DNA of 64,000 nucleotides from Candidatus Latescibacterota bacterium (GTDB lineage: Bacteria > Latescibacterota > UBA2968): NCBI GenBank assembly GCA_965207885.1, contig OZ242311.1, positions 2,912,001 to 2,976,000 on the forward strand. Reading direction: 5' to 3'. Below are positions 1 to 33,722 of the stretch, one piece after another. Numbering within the stretch: position 1 is the first letter of the stretch; every line of letters starts with the position of its first letter. Position numbers and translations under genes: made by a program. The notes beneath the pieces were generated by a model. The model did not search any database and was not told the origin of the DNA. It saw only the letters and a list, made by a program, of their open reading frames with translations.

Positions 1-75
1 AGAGTGCATCCATTATGTTGATTTCATGAGAACTGAAATTGCCAATAACCGAAATCACTTCTTTGGGGCAGACAC

Positions 76-2562
76 ATGCTGAAAAATTATCTCAAAATAA
101 TGCTGAGAAACCTGATAAACCATCGTTTCTACTCAGCTCTGAACATTATCGGATTAGCCATTGGTTTGGCTTGTTGTATCCTGATAGGCCTCTATATCGA
201 CTATGAATTAGGTTTTGATCAGAACCAAAGGAATCGAGATCAAATTTACAGGGTGATTCGAGAGACTAAAACAGTTGACCAAGCAGCTTTTAGTGAGCGC
301 ACATTAGGAGGTCTCGTAGAAGTCTTGAATCAGGATGTATATCCTGAAATTTCTGAGGCTTTGCGTATCCATCGCTGGCAAAGAACAATAATTGCTGACA
401 ATAAGAGAATATACAAACAAGCCTTTTGCCTTACAGACGAGAATGTTCTACAGGTTTTTGACTTTCCACTGATTCAAGGCGATCCCGAAACGGTTCTCTC
501 AGAACCAGGTTCCGTTTTAATCACTCACAGACTTGCACACAAACTGTTTGGCACTGAAAATCCGATTGGCAAAACCATTCTGATCGAGGAAGACGACAAA
601 GATTATGCGCATCACGTTACAGGCGTCTTAAAAAATATGCCTGAGCAGACGGCCATTCGGTTCGATATTTTATCGGCGACTAAAAATGGGCGATGGCAAG
701 AAAAATGGATGGCTTGGAAACCGAGAGGGGGGCGTCCTGTAGAAAGCTATATTTTGCTTAAAGAAGGTTATGATGCGAATCAACTTGAAGGCAAACTTTC
801 AGATCTGATTCCGAAATACCTGGGCGAAGCAGCTGCAAATAACATTCAATATCATTTGCAGCCCCTAAACCGCATCCATCTATACTCCAATCATGATTAT
901 GGCATCAAAATTGAGAATCGTGGTACTCCAGAGACCAGTAAACCTCATGGTGACATTCAAAATGTGTATTTGTTTTCTTTGCTTGCTATTTTTATTTTAG
1001 TAATTGCCTGTGTGAATTTTATAAACCTAACAACTGCTCGTGCAATTGGGCGGAAGCGAGAGGTCGGGCTTCGTAAGGTTGTCGGTGCAAACCGATTGCA
1101 ACTCATCACACAATTTTTGGGCGAATCTATATTTTTTGCTTGTATGGCGCTTATCTTGGCTTTGGTGTTGGTAGAATTGGCATTGCCAACTTTCAATTCG
1201 TTTTTTGATCGCGCTATTACACTCAATGTCAACACAACCCAGTTATTGCTCAGCCTTTTCGGTCTTATATTCATCGTCGGTATTCTGGCAGGGAGTTATC
1301 CGGCATTTGTCTTATCGACATTTCGCCCTGTTTCAATGTTGAGAGGTAAATCCGCTACAAACGTCTCTACTCGGCTTCGCAAGAGTTTGGTTGTAGGACA
1401 ATTTGCGCTTGCCATTTTATTGATGGTTGTCACTTGGGGTGTTTACAGTCAACAGAAATTTCTTCGAAATAAGAATCTGGGATTCGACCGCGAGCAGATT
1501 ATTGAAGTTCCAATTTTTGAGGCAGCGAATAGCAACCAGATGATCAATCCCACGCTTTTCAAGAGCCAATACAACGCCATCAAGCAGGCATTCACGACGC
1601 ATCCCAATATTCTCAGAGCAACAACCACCCGTGGCCCTGTTGGAGAAGGAGCAACAGTAGAGACATTCCATCCCGAAGGAAAATCCACGTACAGTATGGA
1701 TGTGATAATCGTGGATGAAGATTTTCTAGATTTCTATGGCATTAAATGCGTATCAGGCCGGAATTTCACGCGATCATATGCCGAAACAACAAACCCGCAA
1801 AGACTGAGGGAAAAATTAGACGAGCAGTTTATCTTGAATGAAACAGCGGTCGAGCAATTGGGTTGGACAAATCCAATAGGGAAACGATTTGCTTGGAAGG
1901 TTGGAGGCACGTTCTACCCAGATGGACTACGCTCCGGGACAGTCGTCGGTGTTGTCAAAGATTTTCATTACAAACCTCTTGACGAAAAAATCGGACGACT
2001 CGTATTGGTTGCAGAATTTCATGAGGCAAGGCTACTATACCTAGAGGTCAAATCTGAAGATTTATCTCAAACACTGGCATTTGTACAAAAAGTCTGGGAA
2101 AGGTATATATCCAATCGTCCATTCACATTTTCTTTTCTTGATGAGAATTTGGATCGAATCTATAAAAATGAAAGAAAATTGAGCTATATTTTTGGTTTCT
2201 TTTCAACCCTTGGTATTTTGATTGCCTGCTTGGGGTTACTTGGGTTGGCCACATTGAGTGCGCAATACCGTACAAAAGAAATCGGCATTCGCAAGGTATT
2301 GGGAGCGTCTGTATCCAATATTGTTATGTTGCTATCCAGTGATTTTGCAAAGTTGGTCGCACTTGCAAATCTCTTGGCCTGGCCGATTGGCTACTATGCC
2401 CTGTGGCAGTGGCTTCAGAATTATGCGTATCGGGTAGATCTTGGATTTGAGTTCTTTATGTTAAGTGGTATCTTGGCTTTCCTTATTGCCATGATCACAG
2501 TGAGTTTCCAGACAATGAAGGCAGCTCGATCAAATCCTGTAGATGCCTTGCGGAATGAATAA
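76..2562 (+). CDS. ABC transporter permease (MacB/FtsX-like, duplicated)
   Basis: 828 aa; MLKNYLK start; two FtsX motifs (RKREVGLRKVVGA, RTKEIGIRKVLGAS); ends NPVDALRNE. Confidence 0.92.
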   Translation: MLKNYLKIMLRNLINHRFYSALNIIGLAIGLACCILIGLYIDYELGFDQNQRNRDQIYRVIRETKTVDQAAFSERTLGGLVEVLNQDVYPEISEALRIHRWQRTIIADNKRIYKQAFCLTDENVLQVFDFPLIQGDPETVLSEPGSVLITHRLAHKLFGTENPIGKTILIEEDDKDYAHHVTGVLKNMPEQTAIRFDILSATKNGRWQEKWMAWKPRGGRPVESYILLKEGYDANQLEGKLSDLIPKYLGEAAANNIQYHLQPLNRIHLYSNHDYGIKIENRGTPETSKPHGDIQNVYLFSLLAIFILVIACVNFINLTTARAIGRKREVGLRKVVGANRLQLITQFLGESIFFACMALILALVLVELALPTFNSFFDRAITLNVNTTQLLLSLFGLIFIVGILAGSYPAFVLSTFRPVSMLRGKSATNVSTRLRKSLVVGQFALAILLMVVTWGVYSQQKFLRNKNLGFDREQIIEVPIFEAANSNQMINPTLFKSQYNAIKQAFTTHPNILRATTTRGPVGEGATVETFHPEGKSTYSMDVIIVDEDFLDFYGIKCVSGRNFTRSYAETTNPQRLREKLDEQFILNETAVEQLGWTNPIGKRFAWKVGGTFYPDGLRSGTVVGVVKDFHYKPLDEKIGRLVLVAEFHEARLLYLEVKSEDLSQTLAFVQKVWERYISNRPFTFSFLDENLDRIYKNERKLSYIFGFFSTLGILIACLGLLGLATLSAQYRTKEIGIRKVLGASVSNIVMLLSSDFAKLVALANLLAWPIGYYALWQWLQNYAYRVDLGFEFFMLSGILAFLIAMITVSFQTMKAARSNPVDALRNE

Positions 2563-2597
2563 AAAAAACATGCTCCTGAAAAATCTCTAAGGAATAC

Positions 2598-3317
2598 ATG
2601 AGCAACCCGAAACCAAGACACGACAGGCCAACTTGGGCAAGTCGAGTTCCAAGAGAAAAAATAGCCCGCCTTTATGCAACTGATGCACAGGGCATAGTAG
2701 ACGAAGAGCTTATTGAAGACGTGGGGATTGGACTCTTCGCTCGTATCGAAAGCATTTTCAAAGCACGAGAAGCCAGTGCTGGACGAGCAAGATGTCCATT
2801 ATGTGATCGCCAGATAGACCACGACGGTATGAAGGATACGATTCTGAGATGCGAATCGTGCAACTGGGAACTCACCTGGGGCGAGTATCATAAAGCCAAA
2901 CAAGGTAAGCATCTTGCTGCCTCTGGTCTCACGGTCTTTCTCCAAGAGTTCCTCCAGAAATACCAGACTGCGAGATCTCCAAAAGAGAAGATGGTCCTCA
3001 TAGACACCTTGATTCATAGGTATCATTGGGAACTTGAGGGAGGACTGACTCGGCCTGGAGCCACAGATTTAATTGGAGGAAGACAGCATGAAATTATAGA
3101 TTTTCTAAACAAGCTTTCATATGGCGAAAAGAGTAGCCCTGAAATCTTAGCCAATAGAGCAGAATGGATTCAGAAGGTTAAAAAAAGCCAACAGCATCGC
3201 AAAACAAAAAGAGAGGAACGGCAGAAAAAAAAGGAAGAGCGGGAGAGAAAGAAGAACTTAAAGAGAAAAGTTAGACAACAGATGTTGGCGCACAGGGACA
3301 AATCGAGTAAGTCATGA
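2598..3317 (+). CDS. Hypothetical protein with zinc ribbon and Lys/Arg-rich tail
   Basis: 239 aa; CPLC...CESC; AAGGA upstream. Confidence 0.7.
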   Translation: MSNPKPRHDRPTWASRVPREKIARLYATDAQGIVDEELIEDVGIGLFARIESIFKAREASAGRARCPLCDRQIDHDGMKDTILRCESCNWELTWGEYHKAKQGKHLAASGLTVFLQEFLQKYQTARSPKEKMVLIDTLIHRYHWELEGGLTRPGATDLIGGRQHEIIDFLNKLSYGEKSSPEILANRAEWIQKVKKSQQHRKTKREERQKKKEERERKKNLKRKVRQQMLAHRDKSSKS

Positions 3318-3349
3318 TTTTCCACCGAGTTGTGTTCAGTCGGGGGTGA

Positions 3350-3494
3350 ATCTGAAGAACTGAGTCGCATCAGTCCGGAATTCTGCAATGACCCATACAG
3401 TGGTGAAGTAATGCGTGAATGCTCCGTTACGACGATTGCATACGATGGCAACCAATATCGACTCGATGCTGTTGGGGCTATGCACCACCTATAA
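3350..3494 (+). pseudogene. 3' fragment, probably of a histidine phosphatase family gene
   Basis: Reads ...MRECSVTTIAYDGNQYRLDAVGAMHHL*, similar to the C-terminus of PGAM-like phosphatases; no 5' part. Confidence 0.4.
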
Positions 3495-3583
3495 TCCTCT
3501 TGTTTATCCCAACGGATAGCGCTATTTTTTCATACTATTGGCTGAGGTTATACCACCAGGCAGATTGAAAATGGAGTAAATGT

Positions 3584-3811
3584 ATGACAAATTGGGAAAC
3601 ATGCGATGCGGTTGAGCGCCATCCCAAAAAGGTCAGTGGAGCCTGGATATTTCGTGGCACTCGGGTTCCTGTATCCGCGCTTTTCGAGAATCTCAAAGAT
3701 GGGGCTTCGATTGAGCAGTTTCTGGAATGGTTCCCCGGCGTAAAACGATGGCAGATCGAAACGGTTCTCGATCACGAAGTGAAGGCGTTGGCGGGCTCTG
3801 TTGATTCATGA
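3584..3811 (+). CDS. DUF433 antitoxin (VapB45-like)
   Basis: SGAWIFRGTRVPV..LFENLKDGASIEQFLEWFPGV; ATGA overlap with the PIN gene. Confidence 0.88.
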   Translation: MTNWETCDAVERHPKKVSGAWIFRGTRVPVSALFENLKDGASIEQFLEWFPGVKRWQIETVLDHEVKALAGSVDS

Positions 3812-4125
3812 GAATTCTATTTGATCAGGGCACCCCCGTGCCTCTTCGACGATATCTGTCAAATCACTCGGTCGATACCGCCTTTGAGCGGGGATGGTCC
3901 CACCTTCAAAATAGCGAGTTGCTTCAGGCGAGTGAGCAGGATGACTACCAACTCTTGATCTCTACAGACCAAAATCTTCGATACCAACAGAATCTGTCCG
4001 GCAGACAGCTGGCGATCATCGTTCTGCTTTCGACTTCATGGCCACGAATCCAGTTGCGAATTGATGACATCCAGGCTGCTGTTGATAAAATAGCTCTAGG
4101 TGACTACATAGAGATTCCAATCTGA
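3808..4125 (+). CDS. PIN-domain toxin (VapC45/DUF5615-like)
   Basis: MRILFDQGTP...LLISTDQNLRYQQNL. Confidence 0.85.
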   Translation: MRILFDQGTPVPLRRYLSNHSVDTAFERGWSHLQNSELLQASEQDDYQLLISTDQNLRYQQNLSGRQLAIIVLLSTSWPRIQLRIDDIQAAVDKIALGDYIEIPI

Positions 4126-4236
4126 GGCTGTGGCGATCATAGACGCGGCAAATTTTTTCGGTTCCCGCTGGACGACCTATCTGGCGGGATTTCTGCAAGT
4201 GTTGTTCGTCCGCTCCCCACCCCAGGCTGGCACAGC

Positions 4237-4373
4237 ACACAACAAGACGGTTGCAAGTTGCGCTCCCTTCGGTCGCTCCAACCCAAGTGGCCGTGAGTGA
4301 TGGGTTGGCTGATGGGAAACAGGTGATCTGTTTCCTGATGCATTGCCACTTAGGCAACCGCAGGCCGTTACCT
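4237..4373 (+). repeat. attC-like integron recombination site
   Basis: ACACAAC at 4237 and GTTACCT at 4367; arms CGGTTGC/GCAACCG and CCAAGTGGC/GCCACTTAG; inner hairpin GGAAACAG/CTGTTTCC; GCTCCCTTCGGTCGCT motif typical of attC sites. Confidence 0.75.
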
Positions 4374-4413
4374 GCAATGCGCCGCTACGGCCAGTCCTGG
4401 GCCGAGAAAACCA

Positions 4414-5392
4414 ATGGAACCACGCTATCCCAGATATAGAGACGAAACGGGCCCGCTGCCTGATCAGCCAGAAATTATGGATCTCTGCAAGCGATTCTGG
4501 GATCTGGAAGTAACCAGCGTCCGCAGGGCGAATTCGCGGTGCGTCTTCTTTTGTGATAGTCTGCGGGACGGACGCGTTGTGTTCCGCGTGAATCCGGGAT
4601 GGGACGGCTCGACCCATCCCAAAACCATTGTGGAGTTTGTGCGACACCTTGCCGATCGCGGCGCGCCGTGTCCTGACATCCGTCCAACCACGGATGGTAG
4701 CCTCTACAAGTCCGTTCGAGACCTGGTGATTTCGGTGGAGAGCTTCTTGGAAGGAGAGGTCGTAGATCGCGTCGATACTCTCCGCAACGTGGGGGAGGCT
4801 CTCGCACGGGTTCACGATGCGAGCGAAGACTTTCCAGCCTACCTTTCAGAAGTCAAAAATGCGCAGGAGTACATCTCTGATGCTCTCGAGTATTGCGAGA
4901 GGACGACATTCTCGTCGGCCGCGGCAGATGCGGTCACTCGGCTTCGAGCACAGTTGAATAACACGCCGAACAAGATGGACGTTCGTTGGCTCTTCTGTCG
5001 TAGAGATGTGCGAAGTTGGAACACGATTGCTTCCCCGTCAGGTGAGGTCCGATTCACCGACTTCAATTCGGCTCACTTCGCTCCGGCGCTTGAGGATGTA
5101 GTGATGGTCCGGATGCAATGGCTGATGGGGACCGTGGGGCGACAGCTTACAGATGAGGAAATGCAGCGGTTCGTGGAGGGGTACTTTTCAGTCCGGCCTC
5201 CCTCAGATGATGAACGTACCGCACTCCCCTTCATCTTCGCGGCCTACTTATGCCAAGCGCCTCTGCCAGCTCCACCGGAAATGGGGGCCGAAGTCGCCTA
5301 ATCGGAGAACCTGGGGATTGGAAGACCGAATACTCGCTCTCCCTGATGCGGCGATTCGTATGGGCGAGGCTGCAATCGAAGGCATAGATTGA
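4414..5392 (+). pseudogene. APH/homoserine kinase type II-like phosphotransferase, frameshifted
   Basis: LARVH and FTDFNS motifs; catalytic loop reads RRDVRSWN; an extra base near 5248 (GCCTACTTATGCC) moves the C-terminus into the frame ending at 5392. Confidence 0.65.
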
Positions 5393-5424
5393 AAGGCGAG
5401 AATCAGCCAATCCGATGCTCGCCG

Positions 5425-5467
5425 TCCCCCAACCGCTTCGTGGTTCGGGAGTAATGAAACGTTATGT
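5425..5467 (+). repeat. Right-half attC remnant
   Basis: CCCCAACC-GCTTCGT-GGTTCGGG hairpin, then GTTATGT (GTTRRRY-like) at 5461 just before the next gene; no left AAC core. Confidence 0.45.
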
Positions 5468-5485
5468 GACATAGGAATAGGCGAG

Positions 5486-6001
5486 TTGGAACACGCACAT
5501 CCACGAAAACCTTGGCCAACGATCCGATCGGCCGCTGCGGTGGACGCCGAAGTCGTCACACGTATATATATCGATTCGTGGAATGCAGGATTCGGCGAAC
5601 TCATCGAGCAGTCCAATCGCATCGTCACATCAGAACTTGTTGAGCGTTGGCGCGGCGATCTTGCGAAGTCTGCCCCGCACCGGTGGTGGGTCGCAGAGCA
5701 TACGGGTAAGGTTGTCGGTTTTGTCGGCATCGGTCCCAGCCGCGATCCCGTTGACGCCACATTAGGGGAACTCGATACCATCGCCATTGACCCCTCGTAT
5801 TGGCGCCTCGGCATCGGCAAGGCGTTGGCCTCGCTCGCGTTTCGTCATCTCGTTGCCGACGGTTATAATGAAGCGATAGTTTGGACTGTTAAGGGTTATG
5901 AACGCGGGATCGCCTTCTACGAGGCGATGGGGTGGAAACGTGATGGCGGTGTTCGAGACAACGGACGCCAAATCCGGCTCCGTCGCCCATTGTCTATCTA
6001 G
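5486..6001 (+). CDS. GNAT N-acetyltransferase
   Basis: IAIDPSYWRLGIGKAL; AFYEAMGW. Confidence 0.88.
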   Translation: MEHAHPRKPWPTIRSAAAVDAEVVTRIYIDSWNAGFGELIEQSNRIVTSELVERWRGDLAKSAPHRWWVAEHTGKVVGFVGIGPSRDPVDATLGELDTIAIDPSYWRLGIGKALASLAFRHLVADGYNEAIVWTVKGYERGIAFYEAMGWKRDGGVRDNGRQIRLRRPLSI

Positions 6002-6064
6002 ATTACCGCTCCAATGGATAGTGGAGGAGTAAATGCAAATCGACATCATAAAGAAGCGTGTTCA

Positions 6065-7192
6065 ATGATTATGATAGATTGTGATTTTCCGGGTGGGAAT
6101 ATTATCGCTGAGCGAATTGACGGTGATGATGTGTTTCTTCGGCAGGATCTGCGCGATACGGATCGCGACTGGTTCTACTGGTATTTTCGGGTGCGTGGCG
6201 CAGCAGGCCGAACCGTACGGTTTCACTTTACCGGCAGCAATGTGATTGGCACGCGTGGTCCTGGGATGAGTGAAGACGGTGGGGTGACGTGGCGCTGGTT
6301 GGGTAATGATGCGGTGGATGGACAGTCGTTTGTGTATGCGTTTGCGAATGATGCGGATGATGTGCGGTTCAGTTTTGGGATGCCGTATGTGCAGGCCGAT
6401 CTGGACCGATTTTTGGCGTCGTATGTGGATTCGGACTATCTGGTGGCTGAGACGTTGTGCGAGACGCGCAAAGGACGTGATGTTGAGATGTTGTATGTGG
6501 GGAGGCTGGACGGTGGAGCGGATCTGCGCGTGTTGATTGCGGCGCGACACCACTGCTGTGAGATGATGCAGTCGTACGTGCTGGAAGGCATGATGGCGGC
6601 GATACTTGGTGAGGGTGATTTGGGGCGTTGGTTTCAGGGACGGGTTGAATGTCTGGTGATTCCGTTTGTGGATAAAGACGGTGTGGAGGATGGCGATCAG
6701 GGGAAAAATCGGAAGCCGAGGGATCACAACCGGGATTATGTCGGGGAGAGTGTGCATATTGAAACGGCTGTGATTCGAGAAAGGGTGCCGGATTGGAGCG
6801 CGGGCAAACTGAAGGTAGCGATTGATCTGCACTGTCCGTGGATTCGTAGTAATCGAAATGAGACGATTTATCTGGTGGGGTCTGAGTCAGAAGCCCCCTG
6901 GCAGGAACAGATTCGGTTTTCGCATATTTTGGAAGCGGAACGAACGGGAAGCTTGCCCTTTTTTGCAGCGGATAATTTGCCCTTTGGCGTGGAGTGGAAT
7001 ACGGCAGAGAATTATGCAGCTGGCAAGAGCTTTGGTCGGTGGGCGGATGAATTGCCGGGCGTTCAATTGGCAACGGCAATTGAGTTTCCCTATGCCAATG
7101 TGGGCGATCTGGATACGAGTCCAGAACTGGCGCGTGTATTTGGACGCGATCTGGCTGCAGCGTTGAAGGTGTATTTGGAGACGATGGTGTGA
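6065..7192 (+). CDS. Peptidase M14 zinc carboxypeptidase-like
   Basis: ARHHCCE, DHNRDY and IDLHCP motifs. Confidence 0.85.
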   Translation: MIMIDCDFPGGNIIAERIDGDDVFLRQDLRDTDRDWFYWYFRVRGAAGRTVRFHFTGSNVIGTRGPGMSEDGGVTWRWLGNDAVDGQSFVYAFANDADDVRFSFGMPYVQADLDRFLASYVDSDYLVAETLCETRKGRDVEMLYVGRLDGGADLRVLIAARHHCCEMMQSYVLEGMMAAILGEGDLGRWFQGRVECLVIPFVDKDGVEDGDQGKNRKPRDHNRDYVGESVHIETAVIRERVPDWSAGKLKVAIDLHCPWIRSNRNETIYLVGSESEAPWQEQIRFSHILEAERTGSLPFFAADNLPFGVEWNTAENYAAGKSFGRWADELPGVQLATAIEFPYANVGDLDTSPELARVFGRDLAAALKVYLETMV

Positions 7193-7239
7193 TGGTGCGA
7201 TCGCGTTGGCGAGTTGGCCCCATCGAGGTGCTGCTGACA

Positions 7240-8164: not shown

Positions 8165-8183
8165 AGGTCTCACGAGACCGAAG

Positions 8184-9167: not shown

Positions 9168-9194
9168 TGGAACTCTTTATCGGAGGAGCAGTTA

Positions 9195-12623: not shown

Positions 12624-12651
12624 GTCTATATATAGTTTGGGGTAAGAAAAT

Positions 12652-13929
12652 ATGGAGCATATGAAAGACGATGTAGATGTGCTCGTAGTTGGCGGAGGCA
12701 CAGCGGGCACGATTGCTGCCATACAAGGGGGGCGCGCGGGACTTCGCACGGCTCTGGTTGAATCTGGCAGTCAACTCGGCGGTGTCACCACAACAGGCGG
12801 CGTTTCCTTCCCCGGGCTTTTTCATGCCTGGGGAAAGCAGATTGTCGCGGGCATTGGATGGGAACTAGTTATAAAAGCAGTGGCACTTGACAGTGGTCAA
12901 CTGCCGGATTTTTCCGTCTTCTCTCCTGAGCGCCATTGGATGCACCAGATACGCATCAATGGCCCTGTATATGCGGCACTTGCAGAAGAAGCCTGTACTC
13001 AAGCAGGTGTGCAATTGCACTTTTATGAAATACCGACGCAAATTTTAGAAACAGACAGAGGTTGGAAAATCGAGACTGTCGGAAAAAACCTGCGGCGCAC
13101 CATCCTGACCAAACAGTTAATTGACTGCACCGGCGGAGCAAATATTGTGGGCCAGATCGGTTTTCCTCGTTTGCGCGAAGAAGAAACACAACCGGGCACA
13201 TTGATTTTTAAACTGGGTGGTTATGATGTTGATACGCTGGACGAAGATGTCATACAGAGACAGTTTATCGCAGCCATGAAAGATGGCCGATTACAACACG
13301 GCGATGTAAGCAATCCGCGCGCACGGTTCATCGGCTACCTTGGAAAAGGCGGAGAAAATGCCCAGCATGTATTTGGCGCTGATGCATCGACCTCTGACAG
13401 GCATACAAAAACCAACATTGCAGGGCGACAATCTTTGTTGCGGATTTTGCGGTTTGTACGTTCACTGCCTGGATGCGAAAATGCCCGCGTTTTAAAAGCG
13501 CAGGCAGAAACCGCTGTGCGCGAAACCTATCGCATTGTTGGAGAGGAGCAGATAACTCACGATGATTATACCAGTGGCCGACATTTTGAGGACGCTGTAT
13601 CGTACTCTTTTTATCCAATTGACCTCCATGACAAAGACGGTGTAAAGCCCCAACCTCTGTCTGAAGGCACAGTTGCAACAGTTCCACTACGCGCACTGAT
13701 CCCTAAAAACAGTCATAATTTACTCGTCGCTGGACGCAGTGTGAGCAGTGACCGACTTGCAAATTCTGCTTTGCGAGTACAGGCATCCTCAATGGCTATG
13801 GGACAGGCAGCGGGTGCAGCAGCAGCAGTATCTGTGCGTTTGGAAACAACACCCCGCGACGTTCCGCTTTCTGATTTACACGATCTACTCGTGCTACACG
13901 GCGCAGTTGTCCCTAAAAAAGACATCTAA
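12652..13929 (+). CDS. FAD-dependent oxidoreductase
   Basis: VVGGGTAG; VRETYRI; LLVAGRSVSSD. Confidence 0.88.
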   Translation: MEHMKDDVDVLVVGGGTAGTIAAIQGGRAGLRTALVESGSQLGGVTTTGGVSFPGLFHAWGKQIVAGIGWELVIKAVALDSGQLPDFSVFSPERHWMHQIRINGPVYAALAEEACTQAGVQLHFYEIPTQILETDRGWKIETVGKNLRRTILTKQLIDCTGGANIVGQIGFPRLREEETQPGTLIFKLGGYDVDTLDEDVIQRQFIAAMKDGRLQHGDVSNPRARFIGYLGKGGENAQHVFGADASTSDRHTKTNIAGRQSLLRILRFVRSLPGCENARVLKAQAETAVRETYRIVGEEQITHDDYTSGRHFEDAVSYSFYPIDLHDKDGVKPQPLSEGTVATVPLRALIPKNSHNLLVAGRSVSSDRLANSALRVQASSMAMGQAAGAAAAVSVRLETTPRDVPLSDLHDLLVLHGAVVPKKDI

Positions 13930-13950
13930 AAAACAAAGGCCGAACTTTTT

Positions 13951-15375
13951 ATGCCTGAAAAACCTGATATTATCTGGATTTACTGTGACGAACTGCGCAC
14001 CGATGCGCTGGACTGTTATGGGCATCCCAGATTGCAGTTGCGCACGCCAAATCTCGACCGTTTGGCGTGCAGCGGTGTGCGATTCACAAATAACTTTTGC
14101 AATGCGCCTGTTTGTGTTGCCTCCAGATATTGCACGCTAACTGGTCTCTATCCCGAAGACACAGGCGTGTACAACAACGAAGGTGCATGGCCAAATTTCC
14201 GGTTGCCCCGTATCCTGCAAACTTTCCCTAACGTATTTTCACAGAACGGCTATTCAACTGCCAATTTTGGAAAGATCCATGTTGCCCCCGAAATACGTCC
14301 AGGTGCCAATCCAGAGCACGAAATCTTCCAATACCACGACGGAGCAGGTGGTGAAATGAAAATCTGGGAACATCTTGGCGCAGACGCTGTGCAGATGATC
14401 CGCTCGCCCTACGGCGGCATGAACGGCGGTATTTTCCCAGACGGTGAACCCTATCCTCCCGACTCAGTCGTTGAAAATGCTTTACACTGGCTCCAAACGG
14501 CAACCTCCCCTTATCTCGTGCGCATTTCCCTTCTTCAGCCCCACACGCCGGTATTACCTCCAGCACAATATGTAAAGCTTCTCGACGATTGGGATCCCGG
14601 CCTGCCCGATCCGCTGCCTGACACCCTCTCTGCATTTGAAAAACGCGTTGCCGAAGTTTTTGGTGTGGCCAGAATGGATCCCGAAAAACTCCGTGCAGGA
14701 CGCCTTCACTACTACGCACAGGTCGCCTGGATTGACACTCAAGTCGGACGGGTCTTAGAGTTTCTTGAGGAAACTGGACGACAGGAACAAACGCTCATCG
14801 TATTTGGTGCGGACCACGGCAATCCACTTGGCGAGACAGGCGCCTTCGAAAAACTGACTTACACGCCCACAGTGCATCGCGTGCCACTTCTAATCTCCTG
14901 GTCAGACACCATACCTGCAGAGCAAGTGCGGGATGACATCTGCGATAGTCTGGACATTGCACGAACACTCTTTTCTTTTGCCAACATCGAGACACCTTCG
15001 CAATTCAAAGGCCGCGATCTTTTCACTGATCCACCCCCCGACTGTATCTACTCTACAATCGGATATGGCCAGCCATTCAGCAAGATGGCACCCAACGGTG
15101 GCCGTGGCGACTGGTATGGTAATCGCGGTTGGCCACGGCGAAGCTGCATACGCACGAGCCAGTATCGCCTTGATAAAAATGTGTTGCTCAATGGCGAAAA
15201 ACCGAAACCTGAAGATGAAGACATTTTCCTCGCAGATGTGTACGCTGATCCAGAAGAATTCACAAATATAGCACGAGATCCAGAATGTGCAGATGTTGTC
15301 CACCAATTGTCTGATCAACTGGACAAACACACAGCAAATTCTGTAGAAGTAGATCCGTCATGTTTGCAGAGATAG
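13951..15375 (+). CDS. Sulfatase-like hydrolase
   Basis: TPNLDRLA; CVASR (CxAxR variant); GKIH; ADHG. Confidence 0.87.
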   Translation: MPEKPDIIWIYCDELRTDALDCYGHPRLQLRTPNLDRLACSGVRFTNNFCNAPVCVASRYCTLTGLYPEDTGVYNNEGAWPNFRLPRILQTFPNVFSQNGYSTANFGKIHVAPEIRPGANPEHEIFQYHDGAGGEMKIWEHLGADAVQMIRSPYGGMNGGIFPDGEPYPPDSVVENALHWLQTATSPYLVRISLLQPHTPVLPPAQYVKLLDDWDPGLPDPLPDTLSAFEKRVAEVFGVARMDPEKLRAGRLHYYAQVAWIDTQVGRVLEFLEETGRQEQTLIVFGADHGNPLGETGAFEKLTYTPTVHRVPLLISWSDTIPAEQVRDDICDSLDIARTLFSFANIETPSQFKGRDLFTDPPPDCIYSTIGYGQPFSKMAPNGGRGDWYGNRGWPRRSCIRTSQYRLDKNVLLNGEKPKPEDEDIFLADVYADPEEFTNIARDPECADVVHQLSDQLDKHTANSVEVDPSCLQR

Positions 15376-15471
15376 AAGATGCTTTGGAAAGAGAGCGAGA
15401 ATGAAGCCTGAGAAATCATTCACCCCGGAACTTGAAATGGCCATCATCAAGCACCTCAATAGGAGGAGGAA

Positions 15472-16332
15472 ATGGCAGTGAAAACGGAACTCACAGACGA
15501 AGACCTGGAGCACTTCCGCGAGAACGGTTACCTGGTGCTCCCACAGGCATTCAACGCCGATGAAGTCGCCCGCATGCAACATGAAGCAGATCGGATACTC
15601 GAGCTCATCATCAACTCTTCCCTGGCCAACGGGCGAAAAAGCGGGCGACTCGACATTCTGCAGACATCTACCGGGCCGATGGTGCGCAAGATCCAGCCCA
15701 TTAACGACCTGTCGCTGTTCCTGGCCGGAGTGTCTGCCGACGAACGACTCATCGGACCCATGCGTCAACTCATGGGTGACGAGCCGATTCTCATGGAGGA
15801 GAAGCTGAACTACAAAGAGCCGCTGCCCGAAGCGATAGAGGGCATCCCATTGGTCGATCGAGAAGACCGGTTTCCGGTTCACAACGATTGGGCGTATTAT
15901 CTGGCGCAGGATTACCCGCAAGAGATCATCTCTTCGGCCGTGACTATAGATCCGTACGACGAATCGTCCGGACCGCTTCACGTCTGGCCGGGGAGTCACA
16001 AACAGCACCTGGAACATCGCCGACCACCCAACAAAAGGGGATGGGAAGTGCTACCGGATTTGATCGATTTCGATGGGGGCATCGACCTGTTGGCGCCGCC
16101 CGGCTCCATCATGCTCTTCCATTCGGTGCTGGTCCACAACTCCAGGCCGAATATTTCCGGTCGTCCGCGGAGGCTTATGATCTACAGTCATTACCCCAGG
16201 CAAAGCGACATCGGGCACGATGTGAGGAACGGGCCCAGCAGGCTCAGGGAATCGCCCTACGAGTGGGAGTATCAGCGGGCGAAGGAACGCGGTGAATTCG
16301 AGGATGTGTTCCAGGCGCCGGTGTTTTCCTGA
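15472..16332 (+). CDS. Phytanoyl-CoA dioxygenase (PhyH) family
   Basis: FRENGYLV; HND (HxD); VHNS. Confidence 0.88.
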   Translation: MAVKTELTDEDLEHFRENGYLVLPQAFNADEVARMQHEADRILELIINSSLANGRKSGRLDILQTSTGPMVRKIQPINDLSLFLAGVSADERLIGPMRQLMGDEPILMEEKLNYKEPLPEAIEGIPLVDREDRFPVHNDWAYYLAQDYPQEIISSAVTIDPYDESSGPLHVWPGSHKQHLEHRRPPNKRGWEVLPDLIDFDGGIDLLAPPGSIMLFHSVLVHNSRPNISGRPRRLMIYSHYPRQSDIGHDVRNGPSRLRESPYEWEYQRAKERGEFEDVFQAPVFS

Positions 16333-16377
16333 TTCCTCACTCGCTGAGTTCATTACCTTTTCATACTGGAGGTTTTA

Positions 16378-17691
16378 ATGGCAAAAATTGTAATCATTGG
16401 TGCTGGCAGTGGATTCGGAAGCCGACTGTCCCTCGATATTTTATCTCGTGAATTATTAAACGATTCCACAATCGCACTCTGTGATATCAACGAAGAGCGA
16501 TTGACCCAGGTGCACGATTACGTGAACCGCGCCATTGATGGCCATAGGCTCCCTGGCAAATGCATCGCCAGCACGGATCGCGAAGAATTATTGCCCGGCG
16601 CAGATTTTGTCGTCACTGCCGTATCCATTGGAGGCGCAGCCTACTGGGGCGAACCTTACGCATCTGAAATCAACATCCCCAAAAAGTACGGCATTAACCA
16701 AACTGTCGCCGACACAGTAGGTGTAGGAGGAGTGTTCCGTTATCTTCGCACCGCACACGAGCACCTATCATTTTGCAAAAGCATGGAAAAACACTGCCCC
16801 GATGCACTCATGTTAAATTATACCAACCCCATGGCCATGCTCACCTGGATGCATTCTATCGGTTCATCCATCCAAAACGTCGGCCTCTGCCACAGCGTAC
16901 AGGGCACAACAAAAAAACTGGCAAATGGCATTGACGTTCCCTACGAAGATGTTAGTTACCTCGTTGCGGGGATTAACCACCAGGCCTGGATTCTAAAATT
17001 CAACAGAGACGGCGAAGACCTGTATCCTCGCATCTTCAAAGCCGTCGATACCCATCCCAGTTTCAAAGACGACCTGGTGCGGGTCGAGATGATGAAGCAA
17101 TTTGGCTATTTTGTCACCGAAAGCACCCGACACAATTCAGAATACCTCCCCTACTTCCAGCGCACTCAGGAATTGCGGGACATCTACAACCTGCCAGAAC
17201 GCGATCCCGTCTATATGGAATTGCCCGAAGGCCGCAAACGGTCCTGGATGAAAGACACGGGCATCACAGATGACGATACCGAAGCCGAAGTCCCAAAACT
17301 GCAAGCATCCCACGAATACGCTTCTTCAATCGTAGAAGCAAAAATCACAGGTGTCCCATTTGTCTTCAACGGCAACGTCATGAACAACGGATCTATCACC
17401 AATCTTCCCGACGAATGCTGTGTTGAAGTACCCTGCATGATCGACAGAGAAGGCATTCATCCCTGTTACGTTGGTGAACTCCCGCCTCAGTGCGCCGCAT
17501 TAAACATGACCAACATCGCCGTACAAGAACTCTCCGTCAAAGCTGCAATGGAAAAAAATAAAGAAGCGGCATTCCATGCTTGTGCATTGGACCCACTTAC
17601 TGCATCCGTCGTATCTTTACCCGATATCCGAAAAATGTTTGAAGAACTCTGGGAAGCAGAAGGCGATCGACTCAGTTATTTTGATGCCTGA
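16378..17691 (+). CDS. melA: GH4 NAD-dependent alpha-galactosidase/glucosidase
   Basis: IIGAGS; NYTNPM; GLCHSV; GINHQAW. Confidence 0.85.
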   Translation: MAKIVIIGAGSGFGSRLSLDILSRELLNDSTIALCDINEERLTQVHDYVNRAIDGHRLPGKCIASTDREELLPGADFVVTAVSIGGAAYWGEPYASEINIPKKYGINQTVADTVGVGGVFRYLRTAHEHLSFCKSMEKHCPDALMLNYTNPMAMLTWMHSIGSSIQNVGLCHSVQGTTKKLANGIDVPYEDVSYLVAGINHQAWILKFNRDGEDLYPRIFKAVDTHPSFKDDLVRVEMMKQFGYFVTESTRHNSEYLPYFQRTQELRDIYNLPERDPVYMELPEGRKRSWMKDTGITDDDTEAEVPKLQASHEYASSIVEAKITGVPFVFNGNVMNNGSITNLPDECCVEVPCMIDREGIHPCYVGELPPQCAALNMTNIAVQELSVKAAMEKNKEAAFHACALDPLTASVVSLPDIRKMFEELWEAEGDRLSYFDA

Positions 17692-17765
17692 TAAGGAGCA
17701 CGCATGACCGCACTCACAAATGAAGTCGGATCCGTCTGCTGTAACACTTGCGTATCGGTAGCCAG

Positions 17766-24824: not shown

Positions 24825-24908
24825 TAGGAAGCGCCTCCTATGATCTCGAAATACATTGATAAACTCAGAGAAGGTGAATCTCTCCAGGCCGATGAGGCTA
24901 AACAATGA
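24825..24908 (+). pseudogene. 5' stub of a second trpD allele
   Basis: RBS region plus first 68 nt match 28425-28507, with 2 mismatches after the ATG. Confidence 0.9.
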
Positions 24909-24931
24909 AGAAAATCCTATAAGGATATACC

Positions 24932-26789: not shown

Positions 26790-26827
26790 GAATGCTTTGA
26801 AATGGTCCTTTCTTCTTGGAGGAATCT

Positions 26828-27700
26828 ATGGCAAACTTGAATGGAAAGATCGCCCTTGTCACTGGAGGAAGTAGAGGATTGGGACAAGGAATCGCTCTGG
26901 TCTTGGGGGAACATGGATGCACGGTCTATGTTACTGGTCGTAGCACCAAAGAAGACTCACAGCACCCTGAATGGCCTAATGCAACAATTGATAAAACAGC
27001 ACAATTGGTGACTGAGATGGGTGGAAAGGGAATCCCAATTCAATGTGACCATACAGATGACGATCAAGTCGATGGCGTTTATGAACGAATCAAGGAGGAG
27101 AGGGGTTATATTGATATTCTTGTAAATGTCATCTGGGGCGGCTACGAAAATATGGAGAATTTCAGCAAGCCCTTCTGGGATCAGCCGAATTGGCGCATTG
27201 ATAAAATGTATCAGACAGGCGTTCGCACTTCATACACGGCTTGTCGAATAGGTGCAAAACTGATGCTCTCTCGAAAACAAGGACTGATCATCAATATTAC
27301 TTTCTGGGATCAAGACAAATATCTCGAACCCGTGCCCCAGGACTTTGCTTTGACTGCAATGGGGCGGCTTGTGTTCGCTATGGCTCAGGAATTGAAGCCT
27401 CACAATATTGCATCTATTGCTCTTTCTCCAGGCTTCATTCGAAACGAGGGGATGTTATCCCAAGAGGAAATTCGAGGTGAATATCAGAGGCCACCTGTTG
27501 TCTCTCAAAATCTACCACCAAAAACTGAATCTATCCAATACGCAGGAAGAGCTGTCGTCGCCCTTGCCTGCGACCCGAATATTATATCGCGAACAGGTCA
27601 GATTCTCAATATTGGAAACCTATCTCGTGAATATGGATTTACAGATATCGACGGTACGCAGCCACCCCCTTACCAGATTGAATGGACAGGAAAGCCTTGA
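26828..27700 (+). CDS. SDR oxidoreductase (DHRS1-like)
   Basis: VTGGSRGLG; CDHTDD; SPGFIR. Confidence 0.88.
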   Translation: MANLNGKIALVTGGSRGLGQGIALVLGEHGCTVYVTGRSTKEDSQHPEWPNATIDKTAQLVTEMGGKGIPIQCDHTDDDQVDGVYERIKEERGYIDILVNVIWGGYENMENFSKPFWDQPNWRIDKMYQTGVRTSYTACRIGAKLMLSRKQGLIINITFWDQDKYLEPVPQDFALTAMGRLVFAMAQELKPHNIASIALSPGFIRNEGMLSQEEIRGEYQRPPVVSQNLPPKTESIQYAGRAVVALACDPNIISRTGQILNIGNLSREYGFTDIDGTQPPPYQIEWTGKP

Positions 27701-27752
27701 ATCCGTTCCAAAAGAAGCACTGTTTTGACTATAGACAGAGGTTTAATTTTTT

Positions 27753-28349
27753 ATGAAGAAAATTCTATTTGGAACGGCTAATAAAGAAAAAATTCGTCAT
27801 GTTAGACATATTTTATCGCCGTTTGCAATTGAAATTCTGGACCCTGGCCAATTGGGGCTAAAATTAGATGTAACTGAAGACGGCGATACCCCTGAAAAGA
27901 ATGCGATCAAAAAGGCAATAGCTTATTATCAAGCATCGGGCCTCCCATCTTTTGCGATCGATTCTGGGCTGGAGATTAATGGATTGTCAAATAAAGAGCA
28001 ACCTAACGTCTTTGTTCGACGAATTTGTTCCCAAGAACAAGAGGTCACAGATCAGCAGATTATTGACCATTATCTAAAAAAAATATGTTCTGTTGGTGGC
28101 TCAACTTTTGGCACCTGGCACAATTGTATCGCTCTGGTTCATAGTGAGGCTGCCCCCCTTCTTCACAGTTGGCAAATGGAAGTGCTATTTACTTCAAATC
28201 AGAGCCAAAAAACTATTCCTGGTGCGCCTCTCAATTCGATAATGTGTGATCTCGATAGTAGATGTTATTTTTCAGACATGGCCTATATAGATAGGCCGGA
28301 TTCCAGGGCTATTATGAATTTTTTTGATCGCAATCTGGATAAGTGGTAA
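27753..28349 (+). CDS. Ham1/RdgB-like non-canonical purine NTP pyrophosphatase
   Basis: FGTANKEK; EDGDTPEKNAIKKA; IDSGL. Confidence 0.82.
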   Translation: MKKILFGTANKEKIRHVRHILSPFAIEILDPGQLGLKLDVTEDGDTPEKNAIKKAIAYYQASGLPSFAIDSGLEINGLSNKEQPNVFVRRICSQEQEVTDQQIIDHYLKKICSVGGSTFGTWHNCIALVHSEAAPLLHSWQMEVLFTSNQSQKTIPGAPLNSIMCDLDSRCYFSDMAYIDRPDSRAIMNFFDRNLDKW

Positions 28350-28439
28350 AATTGTCACACCTACATCGGCAATGGCAGCCGTTTCACACTCAAGGCAAGC
28401 TTCTGGATAAAAGGACTATCTGAATAGGAAGCACTACCT

Positions 28440-29456
28440 ATGATCTCGAAATACATTGATAAACTCAGAGAGGGTGAATCTCTCCAGGCCGATGAGGCTG
28501 AACAATGTCTGAGTGCAATCCTGGAAAGTAACCTGCCAGACGAACAGATCGCAAAACTGCTCATAGCGTTCTCTGGGAAGGGCGAAACTGCCGATGAAAT
28601 TCTCGGATTTTCGAGAGCTTTATTGACCAAAGCAAGACCTGTACCTCTCCCTTCCTCCGTCATTGATTCGTGTGGCACAGGTGGAAGCGGTTTAAATCGA
28701 TTCAACGTATCTACAACCGCTGCGTTCGTTTTATCTGCTGGTGGCGTTCCGGTGGTGAAACACGGCAATAAAGGATCAAAGCGACCGAATGGAAGCTTTG
28801 ATTTGCTGGAAGAACTCGACTGTGAGTTTGATTTCAGAGATGACCGTTTAGAGGACATTTTCAGGAGAACGAATGTATGTTTTCTGTTTGCCCGCATATA
28901 CCACCCAGTAATGAAAAAAGTGGTGACCGCCAGACAAATGGTTGACAAGAGGACGATTTTCAATCTCAGCGCTCCGTTATGTAATCCTGCCAATCCCCAA
29001 TATCAGATACTCGGAACAATTGATGTCGATATGGGCAGACAACTGGTAGAAGTGCTCCGCCATCTTGGGCGTAAACGCTTCTTGATTGTTGTCGGAGAGC
29101 CGGGGATTGATGAGATCTCCATTTCTGGACACACGCATATCTTTGAAGTGGCCGAAGGTGTGACCAGAGAATACCAGATTTCGCCTTCAGATTTTGGGAT
29201 AGCAAAATGGGATTACAGTGAGATTCCAGGTGGTGATAGTGACGAGAATGCAGAAATCTTCCTATCTCTTTTACAGCACCAAACTCCCGAACCAATTCTG
29301 GATCTGGTGTGTTTGAATGCCGGTGCAGCTTTCTACTGTTTTGGACGCACAGATTCGATTGAGGAAGGCTTTGATCTGAGCAAGGATCTCTTCGCAAAAG
29401 GGTTGGTTCAAGAGAAATTTCTTAAATATAAACGACTGTCCAGCAAGCAGAAGTGA
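28440..29456 (+). CDS. trpD: Anthranilate phosphoribosyltransferase (orphan copy)
   Basis: DSCGTGG; FNVST; KHGN; RTIFN; GIDEIS; LNAGAA. Confidence 0.9.
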   Translation: MISKYIDKLREGESLQADEAEQCLSAILESNLPDEQIAKLLIAFSGKGETADEILGFSRALLTKARPVPLPSSVIDSCGTGGSGLNRFNVSTTAAFVLSAGGVPVVKHGNKGSKRPNGSFDLLEELDCEFDFRDDRLEDIFRRTNVCFLFARIYHPVMKKVVTARQMVDKRTIFNLSAPLCNPANPQYQILGTIDVDMGRQLVEVLRHLGRKRFLIVVGEPGIDEISISGHTHIFEVAEGVTREYQISPSDFGIAKWDYSEIPGGDSDENAEIFLSLLQHQTPEPILDLVCLNAGAAFYCFGRTDSIEEGFDLSKDLFAKGLVQEKFLKYKRLSSKQK

Positions 29457-32389: not shown

Positions 32390-32479
32390 ATATAACAGGT
32401 CCACTTGCGCTGTGGCGCATTTGCGCCATGGTCTTCAGCAATCCGCTTCGCAGGTTCGCAACCCGCGAGAACGTTACAC
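32390..32479 (+). repeat. attC-like site
   Basis: ATATAAC at 32390 and GTTACAC at 32473; TTGCG/CGCAA arms; inner TGGCGCA/TGCGCCA hairpin. Confidence 0.6.
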
Positions 32480-32514: not shown

Positions 32515-32877
32515 ATGATTAAGAGCTTACACCACGCACAGATTACGGTACCCAGGGGCGCTGAGGATGCTGCGAGGGAGTTCTATTGCGGCATTTTAGG
32601 GTTACCCGAAATCGAGAAGCCGGAATCGCTTAAGGCCCGAGGTGGATTGTGGTTGCAAGTCGGTGATCGCCAGGTTCACGTAGGAATCGAAGAGGGCGTG
32701 GATCGGCTGGCTACCAAGGCACACCTGGCCTACGAGGTGACAGACATCTCTTTTTGGAGGTCTCTGCTTGCTGAGGCGGGCGTCGAGATAGAAAAATCCA
32801 TCGCAATTTCCGGCATCGATCGCTTCGAATTTCGGGATCCTTTTGGGAATCGAGTTGAAATCCTCATGCAGACTTAA
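32515..32877 (+). CDS. VOC/glyoxalase family protein
   Basis: LHHAQITVP; FYCGILGL; DPFGNRVE. Confidence 0.9.
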   Translation: MIKSLHHAQITVPRGAEDAAREFYCGILGLPEIEKPESLKARGGLWLQVGDRQVHVGIEEGVDRLATKAHLAYEVTDISFWRSLLAEAGVEIEKSIAISGIDRFEFRDPFGNRVEILMQT

Positions 32878-32891
32878 GAAAGGATGGCAGA

Positions 32892-33004
32892 ATGTCTTCA
32901 GCCTCCGATACTCCGCGCGTGTACCTGGGTGCCTATGGATTCTGCCGTACCGCGTTCTGTTGGTGAGGTGGAGGCAACGCACAACAAGAAGCTCAAGTTC
33001 GTTC
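32892..33004 (+). pseudogene. Collapsed copy of the 24289 NUDIX gene (head + downstream flank + left attC arm)
   Basis: 32892-32948 matches 24289-24345; 32950-32990 matches 24736-24776. Confidence 0.9.
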
Positions 33005-33129
33005 AGTATACTTGAGCATAGAGAAAATTTCGCTGGAAATGACCGGTATCGGAAGCTATATTGTTACGAGAGTAGCCAAACCGAAGTCGATTCGAACCGT
33101 ACATATTATTCTGGAAAATTTGACTCCAG

Positions 33130-33237
33130 ATGAAGAATTGGCCTGAATTCGATCATAATGGTGATTTACCAGTAGGGATTCATGAGGCAACACTGGATGA
33201 GGTGATCAACGATGATTCAGAACGATCAGGAACTTGA
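33130..33237 (+). pseudogene. Internally deleted DUF6932-like gene
   Basis: MKNWPEFDHNGDLPVGIHEATLDEVI joined to a short tail that overlaps the next gene. Confidence 0.55.
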
Positions 33238-33421
33238 GGCGACCAAGGAACGCATCCAATATTTTCAGCGACAAGTAGAAAAGCTTCGACAGGTCGAAAC
33301 CAATCCACAGAACTATTGGTTATCGGCAGGAGGCTATCTGGCCGAAATAGATCGGATGAATCTCGAGGTGAGAGAGTATCTTTCGCTTCATCCAAGTGAA
33401 CAAAGAGAGCGGGTTACCTGA
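33212..33421 (+). CDS. Small hypothetical protein (possible partner of the DUF6932-like gene)
   Basis: MIQNDQELEATKERI... 69 aa; GAGGTG upstream. Confidence 0.7.
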   Translation: MIQNDQELEATKERIQYFQRQVEKLRQVETNPQNYWLSAGGYLAEIDRMNLEVREYLSLHPSEQRERVT

Positions 33422-33451
33422 GTTTATCATAGAACATGTTTTGTGATATAG

Positions 33452-33487
33452 ATCCCCGTTCAGTAGGTTCTGACGGGGATTTTCTTT
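33452..33487 (+). terminator. Rho-independent terminator
   Basis: ATCCCCGT(T)CAG...CTGACGGGGAT followed by TTTCTTT. Confidence 0.7.
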
Positions 33488-33532
33488 ACCAAACACACCG
33501 TTGTTGCGCTGCGTCGCCCTACGCCCAAAAAC

Positions 33533-33722
33533 AAGGACATCCCATGAATTTCACGGTTGATCTTGAATATACTACATGCAGCCCCCAAGATGGATTGCCG
33601 TTTACAGAGGAGACATTCTGTCGGCGTAGTATCCCATTTACCTTTTAAAATCTGTGAAAATTCTTAAATAAAAAGCCCCTAAGCTTGCGTCATCCCGACT
33701 CCAACCACTACTCCAGAGACTA
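33533..33722 (+). pseudogene. Collapsed allele of the 24932 isochorismatase gene (head + tail + downstream flank)
   Basis: First 34 codons match at 92/102 nt, then the sequence jumps at CCTTT to the last codons and the 3' flank of 25765-25846. Confidence 0.9.

Follow-up and report, generated by a model that had tools for sequence, protein, structure and literature searches.

A Probable Eroded Integron-Type Cassette Array, Largely Devoid of attC Sites, in a Candidatus Latescibacterota Genome

Introduction

Integrons are recognised through their integrase gene and the attC sites of their cassettes. In the sedentary integrons of Vibrio, essentially every cassette is followed by an attC, and a functional IntI is transcribed divergently. 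Here, we describe a locus that probably shows such an array after both hallmarks have gone. It is a one-directional string of accessory genes occupying positions 1 to 33722, and more DNA upstream, of a 64,000-nucleotide stretch (hereafter, the window) from a Candidatus Latescibacterota bacterium. The window corresponds to positions 2912001–2976000 of the genome (GCA_965207885.1, contig OZ242311.1; hereafter G000), which is a single contig of 6.23 Mb and 97% complete; coordinates upstream of the window are negative, window -8237 being genome 2903763. We read the locus as an eroded integron-type array which was compacted by deletion and whose blocks were reshuffled by homologous exchange, and put the probability of this reading at about 0.8.

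The closest described case is that of Xanthomonas, where an ancestral integron lies at a fixed site downstream of ilvD, the integrase has repeatedly been truncated or lost, and the arrays have then been frozen (PMC12444791, which also reviews earlier studies by Gillings and colleagues). As far as the available portion of that report describes them, the Xanthomonas arrays share with the present locus the fixed chromosomal site, the repeated loss of the integrase and the differences between species. However, they are still recognisable through attC, as integrons or as clusters of attC sites lacking integrases (CALINs), whereas nearly all attC sites are gone here and the spacers are compacted. 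The Xanthomonas integrase is a canonical IntI, whereas the recombinase found at the head of related arrays here lacks the IntI-specific domain; also, blocks have apparently been exchanged between species here after integrase loss.

Loss of intI has been proposed as an origin of CALINs, and a single attC may come from cassette degradation (Cury et al., 2016; PMC4889954). Within what the available portion of that survey covers, the present locus resembles CALINs and single attC sites in having attC without a nearby integrase, but its three attC sites are separated by 10.5 and 28 kb, beyond the clustering threshold of at least two attC within 4 kb; therefore, at most three isolated sites would be reported, and 40 attC-less cassettes would go unreported. 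The same portion mentions four recombinases lacking intI_Cterm, each beside fewer than three attC, and concludes that they are not IntI (Cury et al., 2016), whereas the recombinase described below heads four and five consecutive attC cassettes in two genera (genomes G034 and G005, respectively). Apart from this negative statement, and a supplementary tree of 21 recombinases in the same paper that may bear on it, we found in the literature no attC arrays headed by a recombinase without the IntI domain, and no paper on Latescibacterota integrons.

Like the sedentary integrons of Vibrio, as these are portrayed in the sources at hand, the locus is a long, co-directional array at a fixed chromosomal site, whose cassettes would be promoterless and include a toxin–antitoxin-like one. 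Unlike them, it has attC at only 3 of 42 junctions and no integrase, and the recombinase of its relatives points toward the cassettes. Two features set it apart from known cases, namely how far erosion has gone and which kind of recombinase stands at the array head in relatives.

Conserved Head and Mosaic Structure of the Array

Seven congeners (G004, G005, G006, G008, G010, G015 and G017; genus g1) were compared with G000. The genus was sampled at 20 genomes, the sister genus g6 at three and the phylum at 168. Records of close relatives are titled 'MAG: Candidatus Latescibacterota bacterium', and metagenome runs of sponge, coral and marine origin, which come from several studies, contain at least half of the sampled words of window 1–10000; G000 is a sponge-associated Latescibacterota genome.

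1..33722, plus strand: in-window part of the putative cassette array (open reading frame listing, Pfam, mosaic against the seven congeners)

The preliminary description of the window reported 34 consecutive plus-strand genes in a one-directional run of more than 33 kb. The listing of open reading frames (ORFs) indeed gives 34 plus-strand ORFs, from 76 to 33133, and the run is longer than was claimed, as it begins at genome 2900509. The whole variable array extends from window -8237 to 33722, i.e., about 42 kb with 43 ORFs, nine of which lie upstream of the window. Its left flank, consisting of ispH and genes for a Gfo/Idh/MocA oxidoreductase, a 383-aa protein, Ldh_2 and a UVR-motif protein, is collinear in all seven congeners at 91.6–93.8% identity up to about window -8250.

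Past this boundary, shared and private modules are arranged differently in every genome. A gene order common to relatives, which the preliminary description had named as evidence against its view, is not seen: module order differs in each of the seven, and the common order expected of a conserved operon or gene cluster is confined to sub-blocks (e.g., 12645–17697 and 4379–9179). As in integrons, co-oriented cassettes occupy one site and their content varies between close relatives. Breaks between modules fall close to ORF ends, at distances from a few to about 50 nt. Alternative module joins at the relatives' breakpoints (e.g., 2640 to 3382, 3496 to 4379, 4715 to 5471 and 9166 to 10153) occur in metagenome and metatranscriptome contigs of sponge, coral and marine origin (runs X15, X16, X18 and X5; window 1–20000), and therefore the mosaic is seen in independent samples.

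Among shared array blocks of at least 300 nt detectable by BLAST, 75 of 91 are closer to G000 than the adjacent core is, with block averages of 93.6–98.6%; the block at -9..2640, for example, is 99.2% identical to its counterpart in G017. The more-similar blocks include ones with attC-less junctions. Blocks are probably exchanged between species by homologous recombination.

The heads of integrase-less genomes have a terminator-like hairpin followed by a 40–60-nt stretch common to G000, G006 and G008. A sigma-70 consensus scan of the array head gave matches at chance level, and in none of three stretches did matches to promoter and terminator consensuses exceed the shuffle level. Three RNA libraries contain contigs over 30, 24 and 23 of 30 bins, and a single 2.7-kb contig runs across three genes; as DNA may be present in these libraries and the contigs do not show transcript ends, they are not counted as evidence of co-transcription, and bins without cover carry no weight either.

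attC Sites

A scan for stems of at least 10 bp bounded by AAC and GTT(A/G) found attC sites of 56–141 nt in the arrays of the relatives, and a single one in G000. In an alignment of sixteen such sites, the ends TAAC-A and C-GTTA are invariant, and all nine pairs of a 9-bp stem have compensatory changes. A covariance model built from these 16 sites (R1) was run with filters off on the window and 20 kb upstream, and bears out the two attC-like sites reported for the window in the preliminary description.

4237..4373, plus strand: complete attC, 137 nt, with TAAC...GTTA ends and a covarying 9-bp stem (R1 101.3 bits, E 7e-21)
32390..32479, plus strand: complete attC of a 90-nt class (R1 12.4 bits, E 1.8, full-length alignment)
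window -6400..-6312 (genome 2905600-2905688): third attC, 90-nt class (R1 15.9 bits)

The site at 4237–4373 is 93% identical to an attC of G006 and lies 3' of a DUF433/DUF5615-like two-gene cassette. The one at 32390–32479 lies between methyltransferase and glyoxalase genes and takes in the first ATG of the glyoxalase ORF as listed; it is 84% identical over 58 nt to an attC of G010, and 93% identical over 28 nt to the upstream attC of G000. Both weak sites of the 90-nt class are confirmed by 84–94% identity to G010 attC. When 21 attC sequences were compared by BLAST with 62 kb around the array, only the three sites and one 19-nt fragment were found. An attC at most junctions would have indicated an ordinary integron in the terms of the preliminary description; attC sites are present at 2 of the 33 in-window junctions and, as noted above, at three in the whole array.

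Genome-wide at E ≤ 0.001, R1 finds one site in G000, which falls within the array. The genomes of the genus have 0–4 sites each, with at least one in 10 of 20, and the three g6 genomes have 4, 7 and 10. In the regions of the seven relatives, all 23 R1 matches are on the coding strand. Five of these are in G005 (22722–28054), where each of the five cassette intervals next to the recombinase is followed by one; the last 8 kb of the G005 contig, with an ABC-permease block also present in G000, has no R1 match.

Other search methods were less useful. A scanner requiring 5 of 7 R-box pairs was dropped, as it returned mostly coding-region noise and missed true sites. When AAC...GTT pairs were ranked by constrained folding energy, coding hairpins came up among the true sites, and the ranking served for spotting examples only; an ungapped inverted-repeat search did not detect the bulged attC hairpins. 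A second alignment, of short attC classes, was structurally inconsistent and yielded no model, such that the counts for short classes may be too low. At genome 6.03 Mb, what looked like a cluster of attC sites proved to be one terminator hairpin counted several times.

Compacted Junctions and Independent attC Loss

The short spacers noted in the preliminary description are real: the 33 in-window junctions comprise 6 overlaps and 27 spacers of 6–490 nt, and at 18 of them the genes overlap or lie less than 57 nt apart, too short a space for the shortest attC of the clade (56 nt). Comparison of the same junctions in different species indicates how they arose.

2563..2597, plus strand: compacted junction of the ABC permease gene and a gene for a 239-aa protein (G000 breakpoint 2574/2575)
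8165..8183, plus strand: compacted junction of NUDIX and PD40 protein genes (about 150 extra nt in G004 and G015)
9168..9194, plus strand: compacted junction of PD40 protein and APH genes (98 extra nt in G004)
3351..3481, plus strand: scar, 3' end of a His_Phos gene left as an orphan (counterpart in the intact gene at genome 2906223-2906351)
24825..24907, plus strand: scar, orphan start of a trpD-like gene (94% identical to 28425-28507; repeat family D8)
32876..33003, plus strand: scar, NUDIX start and 3' flank with the body gone (copies of 24273-24345 and 24736-24789; families D12 and D16)

At the junction between the ABC permease and 239-aa genes, G006 has 322 nt, including a 141-nt attC that starts 64 nt past the permease gene and a 115-nt leader of the 239-aa gene. 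The same 322-nt deletion is present in G000 and G017; the deletion in G005 is larger and not the same, that in G008 differs from both, and in G010 the join falls within a different attC, giving five different states among the genomes. In G008, an attC also precedes the ABC permease gene at a distance of 34 nt, and the 239-aa gene has one 122 nt downstream in both G006 and G015. The preliminary description had considered large genes unlikely as cassettes, but the 2.5-kb ABC permease gene is flanked by attC in G006 and G008. The 98 extra nt at the PD40/APH junction of G004 contain an attC-like hairpin, as read by eye and not scored with R1. Overall, the same cassettes bear attC in one species and lack it in another, and the deletions differ, which supports the earlier suggestion of compaction by deletion. 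At the junctions so compared, the deletions are independent of one another.

Spacers of the array have no excess of hairpins (2.4 per kb, compared with a genome background of 2.8). The strongest spacer hairpin other than attC, with 14 pairs, is at window 27703-27777, where the SDR gene ends and the Ham1-like gene has its start codon, and it covers both. No k-mer (7–9-mers) is common to more than 5 of the 33 junctions, a level equal to that of control windows inside genes, and by this count over the 33 junction windows, no repeated site of the Xer/dif type flanks the modules. Two candidate signatures were rejected: 'mini-attC' remnants (TAAC and GTTA separated by 3–32 nt, as collapsed sites) occur twice in the array against 1.5 expected, and a cassette-leader motif occurs twice in the window against 1.2 expected.

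12645..17697, plus strand: four-gene block of FAD oxidoreductase, sulfatase, PhyH dioxygenase and GH4 (order kept in relatives)

G004 and G015 have whole-gene insertions between the genes of this block, without recognisable attC. In the sulfatase/PhyH gap of G004 (L029, ~10555-11143), direct repeats of TTGCTTAAYCC flank a 590-nt insert that contains two small ORFs and in which no attC was recognised; by eye, its ORFs look HicB/HicA-like.

A Recombinase at the Array Head

As the preliminary description stated, the window encodes no integrase; neither does the upstream DNA, and the whole genome lacks an integron integrase. The best G000 matches to TIGR02249 score 88.6 and 57.7 bits (cut-off 265) and are two Xer-like genes at 0.66 and 1.70 Mb. 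The recombinase gene found at the head of related arrays is likewise nowhere in G000, the only related genes being two Xer paralogues with 30–33% identity.

In G005, an intact 376-aa tyrosine recombinase with intact box I and box II motifs is encoded directly 3' of the UVR-motif gene, on the cassette strand. G010 has a copy at the same place, from which residues 17–142 are deleted. Remnants of 54 codons in G006 and of 33 codons in G000 (genome 2909768-2909866, 97% identity) are present, and no trace was found in the fetched regions of G004, G008, G015 and G017. At E ≤ 1e-50, 2 of the 20 genomes of the genus have a match.

A homologue also occurs in the sister genus. G034 (g6) encodes a 405-aa protein, 50% identical, followed by four cassettes each ending in an attC of 136–137 nt. 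The G034 contig has no R1 match beyond these four, and a hairpin scan of the 10.8 kb upstream of the recombinase found no hairpin with TAAC...GTTA ends. The G034 array is the intact form of the eroded type of G000.

The best solved-structure matches of the head recombinase are Vibrio IntI4 (2a3v) and archaeal XerA, and it scores 215.7 bits with the XerA model NF040815 (cut-off 220). Its alignment with IntI4 skips 67 IntI4 residues where the head recombinase has 25. In an alignment of 33 rows, the IntI-specific insertion is present in all six canonical IntI proteins of the phylum. None of the 18 head-type Latescibacterota proteins has it, nor does any of the seven homologues from other phyla or either Xer paralogue. 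In a tree whose root is not secure, having two outgroup rows only, Xer splits off with 100/100 support, and canonical IntI forms one long-branched clade (100/100) on an unresolved radiation of such short-type proteins.

Proposed History of the Array and Alternative Explanations

These results support the 'heavily eroded chromosomal integron array' of the preliminary description, given the presence and absence of attC at the same junctions and the recombinase remnant in G000, and they do not support the 'new capture system' of its title. The region would be the integrase-proximal part of an old array at a fixed site after the ispH/oxidoreductase/Ldh_2/UVR-domain cluster in a Latescibacterota genus. 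Cassettes, each a gene with its attC hairpin, would have been inserted at the head by the tyrosine recombinase encoded there and transcribed toward the cassettes; that this recombinase made the array seems likely from its position in relatives. The recombinase gene would then have been destroyed in G000, leaving 33 codons, and attC hairpins and cassette leaders would have been removed junction by junction through ordinary deletions with arbitrary end points. Only deletions sparing the neighbouring ORFs would persist, such that selection for ORF integrity would shape the end points; the expected outcome is therefore an array of gene after gene, with spacers of 6–100 nt and few fragment scars. 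The array would no longer be rearranged site-specifically, and would now change by deletion, duplication, insertion sequence activity and exchange of multi-cassette blocks.

Several points weigh against this history. Insertion and deletion are not polarised on the species tree. R1 was built from the clade's own attC and scores the 90-nt class low (12–16 bits), and other classes could be missed. The block identities describe survivors only, i.e., blocks that BLAST can detect. The head recombinase is not an integron integrase by the usual measure, with 214 bits for TIGR02249 (cut-off 265), and its link to the cassettes is positional only. The remnants in G000 and G006 are located 6–10 kb inside the array and not at the head, and therefore further rearrangements must be assumed. 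Finally, the 12645–17697 block has an attC flank in none of seven arrays examined, and may have arrived otherwise.

This last point is shared with the best-surviving alternative, an attC-independent capture locus which chromosomal or foreign genes and small operons would enter by homologous or illegitimate recombination, cassettes being one input of several. The whole-gene insertions of G004 and G015 in that block count in its favour, and the mosaic runs on for tens of kilobases in relatives with larger genes. Also, attC-less multi-gene blocks are 97–99% identical between species, compared with 92–94% for the core, and therefore DNA enters without an integrase. However, homologous exchange of existing blocks is not the capture of new genes; every informative comparison pairs an attC-less state with an attC-bearing state elsewhere, with differing deletions; and no common junction motif or microhomology class was found at the 33 junctions. 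We regard this alternative as unlikely, and a separate attC-independent capture system is not needed, although some blocks might have entered in this way.

Still less probable is an ordinary variable island or leading-strand gene cluster without integron ancestry, in which attC-like hairpins and the recombinase would be passengers. Long same-strand runs do occur elsewhere in G000 (e.g., 2693000-2794000), the heterogeneity of composition exceeds that of controls only modestly, and the recombinase family also occurs as multi-copy elements (six copies in G030), but passengers would hardly account for 23 of 23 attC matches co-oriented with genes at module boundaries, the clustering of attC directly behind the recombinase in G005, G010 and G034, the location of the sole full-scoring attC of the G000 genome in the array, or a gene content typical of integron arrays. 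A still-active integron served in trans by an integrase from elsewhere in the cell would explain why cassette blocks are very alike between species and why metagenome and metatranscriptome contigs have alternative joins at the same module boundaries, but is highly improbable, as the one-contig, 97%-complete genome has neither a canonical IntI nor a head-type recombinase, three attC are left as substrates, and the alternative joins match arrangements of other species and do not require rearrangement within a strain.

Implications and a Possible Second attC Recombinase

On our reading of the locus as an eroded integron-type array, the remnant consists of some 43 accessory genes, strung together as compactly as in an operon, and is still variable between species and still exchanged in blocks. 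If such remnants are common, genome surveys would undercount integron-derived DNA, and some 'variable genomic islands' may be fossil cassette arrays. The recombinase bears on the accepted rule that IntI needs an extra domain, and is a testable candidate for a different attC recombinase. More tentatively, and with somewhat less than even odds in our judgement, a second kind of attC recombinase, the nearest relative of IntI and without the IntI domain, might build arrays in g1 and g6 which later become attC-less 'ghost integrons' of 40 kb that finders do not see; if so, the share of integron-type capture in bacterial genomes is underestimated.

The distribution of these proteins in the phylum is relevant to this idea. 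Canonical IntI is encoded in 17 of the 168 phylum genomes, and in none of the 20 of this genus or the three of g6. R1 matches occur within 1.5 kb of 13 of 28 short-type loci, in four families, and 9 of these 13 have them downstream on the same strand. R1 finds no site within 1.5 kb of six canonical IntI genes of the phylum, the model being specific to the classes of this clade. Three observations do not suit a simple attC recombinase. The short-type family is large and present in many phyla, with 7,321 of 8,000 scored proteins at E ≤ 1e-20. G030 (L072 and L078) has six near-identical short-type copies, one with attC-model matches on both sides, as if the recombinase gene itself were a cassette or an attC-targeting element. 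In G082 (L084, C1 2492064-2496008), a short-type recombinase is encoded about 370 nt downstream of a canonical intI, twice in the genome.

Gene Content and Composition

Pfam matches were obtained for 29 of the 34 in-window ORFs. The genes with assigned families are as follows, all on the plus strand and, unless coordinates are given, placed in the in-window array by Pfam.

in-window array, plus strand: MacB/FtsX-type ABC permease, 2.5 kb
in-window array, plus strand: four APH-type kinases; three GNAT acetyltransferases
in-window array, plus strand: two NUDIX proteins, two HAD hydrolases, two PF12831 FAD oxidoreductases
in-window array, plus strand: cytidine deaminase, sulfatase, PhyH dioxygenase, GH4 glycosidase
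in-window array, plus strand: S8 peptidase, aldo-keto reductase, SDR, Ham1-like protein
in-window array, plus strand: TrpD-like phosphoribosyltransferase, CBM9/DUF5916 protein, methyltransferase, glyoxalase
3584..4125, plus strand: two small ORFs, one matching DUF433 (50.5 bits) and the other, weakly and below cut-off, DUF5615 (18.7 bits)
upstream of the window: nine array ORFs, among them metallophosphatase, AadA-like nucleotidyltransferase, histidine phosphatase, methyltransferase, a second NUDIX copy, GNAT and APH

APH, GNAT, NUDIX, glyoxalase and HAD proteins and toxin–antitoxin-like pairs are generally reported for integron arrays. The two ORFs at 3584–4125, which we take to be a toxin–antitoxin-like cassette, own the only full-scoring attC of the genome (window 3584-4373). 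To call the genes unrelated singletons, as was done at first, overstates their diversity, since several families recur in the numbers given above and the 12645–17697 block keeps its order in all six relatives that have it. The gene-by-gene shifts in composition, also noted at first, are real but modest: the standard deviation of G+C content at third codon positions is 0.095 in the array, compared with 0.055–0.084 in three control regions.

Right End of the Array

The right part of the window consists of two insertion sequence (IS) copies and core DNA.

33721..34662, minus strand: IS of 942 nt with DDE_Tnp_1 and DUF4096 ORFs, which cuts off the array (one of 23 identical genome copies)
34663..46418, plus strand: core segment, not array: sulfatases, YHYH proteins, another transposase, RecQ-like helicase (located elsewhere in 5 of 5 relatives)
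46419..47361, plus strand: second IS copy, inverted relative to the first (99.8% over 952 nt)
47362..64000, plus strand: core DNA, not array: S8 peptidase, UvrD-like helicase, metallophosphatase, FGGY kinase and others

The IS ORFs are apparently read through a frameshift, and the 23 identical copies point to a recent IS expansion. The two inverted copies bracket a translocated core segment of 12 kb. The preliminary description had the array resume after the transposon (47362-49461), which is not the case: window 49400-64000 is core DNA, 90–92% identical to that of relatives, and in all five relatives checked it is located about 100 kb away, across the array head and inverted. In G008, G015, G017 and G006, the modules farther along the array correspond to G000 2716000-2790800, where they run the opposite way; genes are larger in this distal part, and the attC model has no match there. 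This is most simply read as an inversion of about 155 kb that had one end in the array and divided the variable region.

Repeats are present in the core DNA of the window. Two units of about 132 nt (76% alike) at window 47362-47606 match 2-kb tandem arrays, made up of similar units, in all five relatives checked (e.g., G006 C1 5299704-5301946 and G015 C1 4479584-4481804). Two tandem YHYH/PKD paralogues at window 36685-39343 have stretches of 80–91% identity at an offset of 1462 nt, and the sulfatase genes at window 35087-36652 and 41844-43268 are paralogous, with 86% identity over 300 nt.

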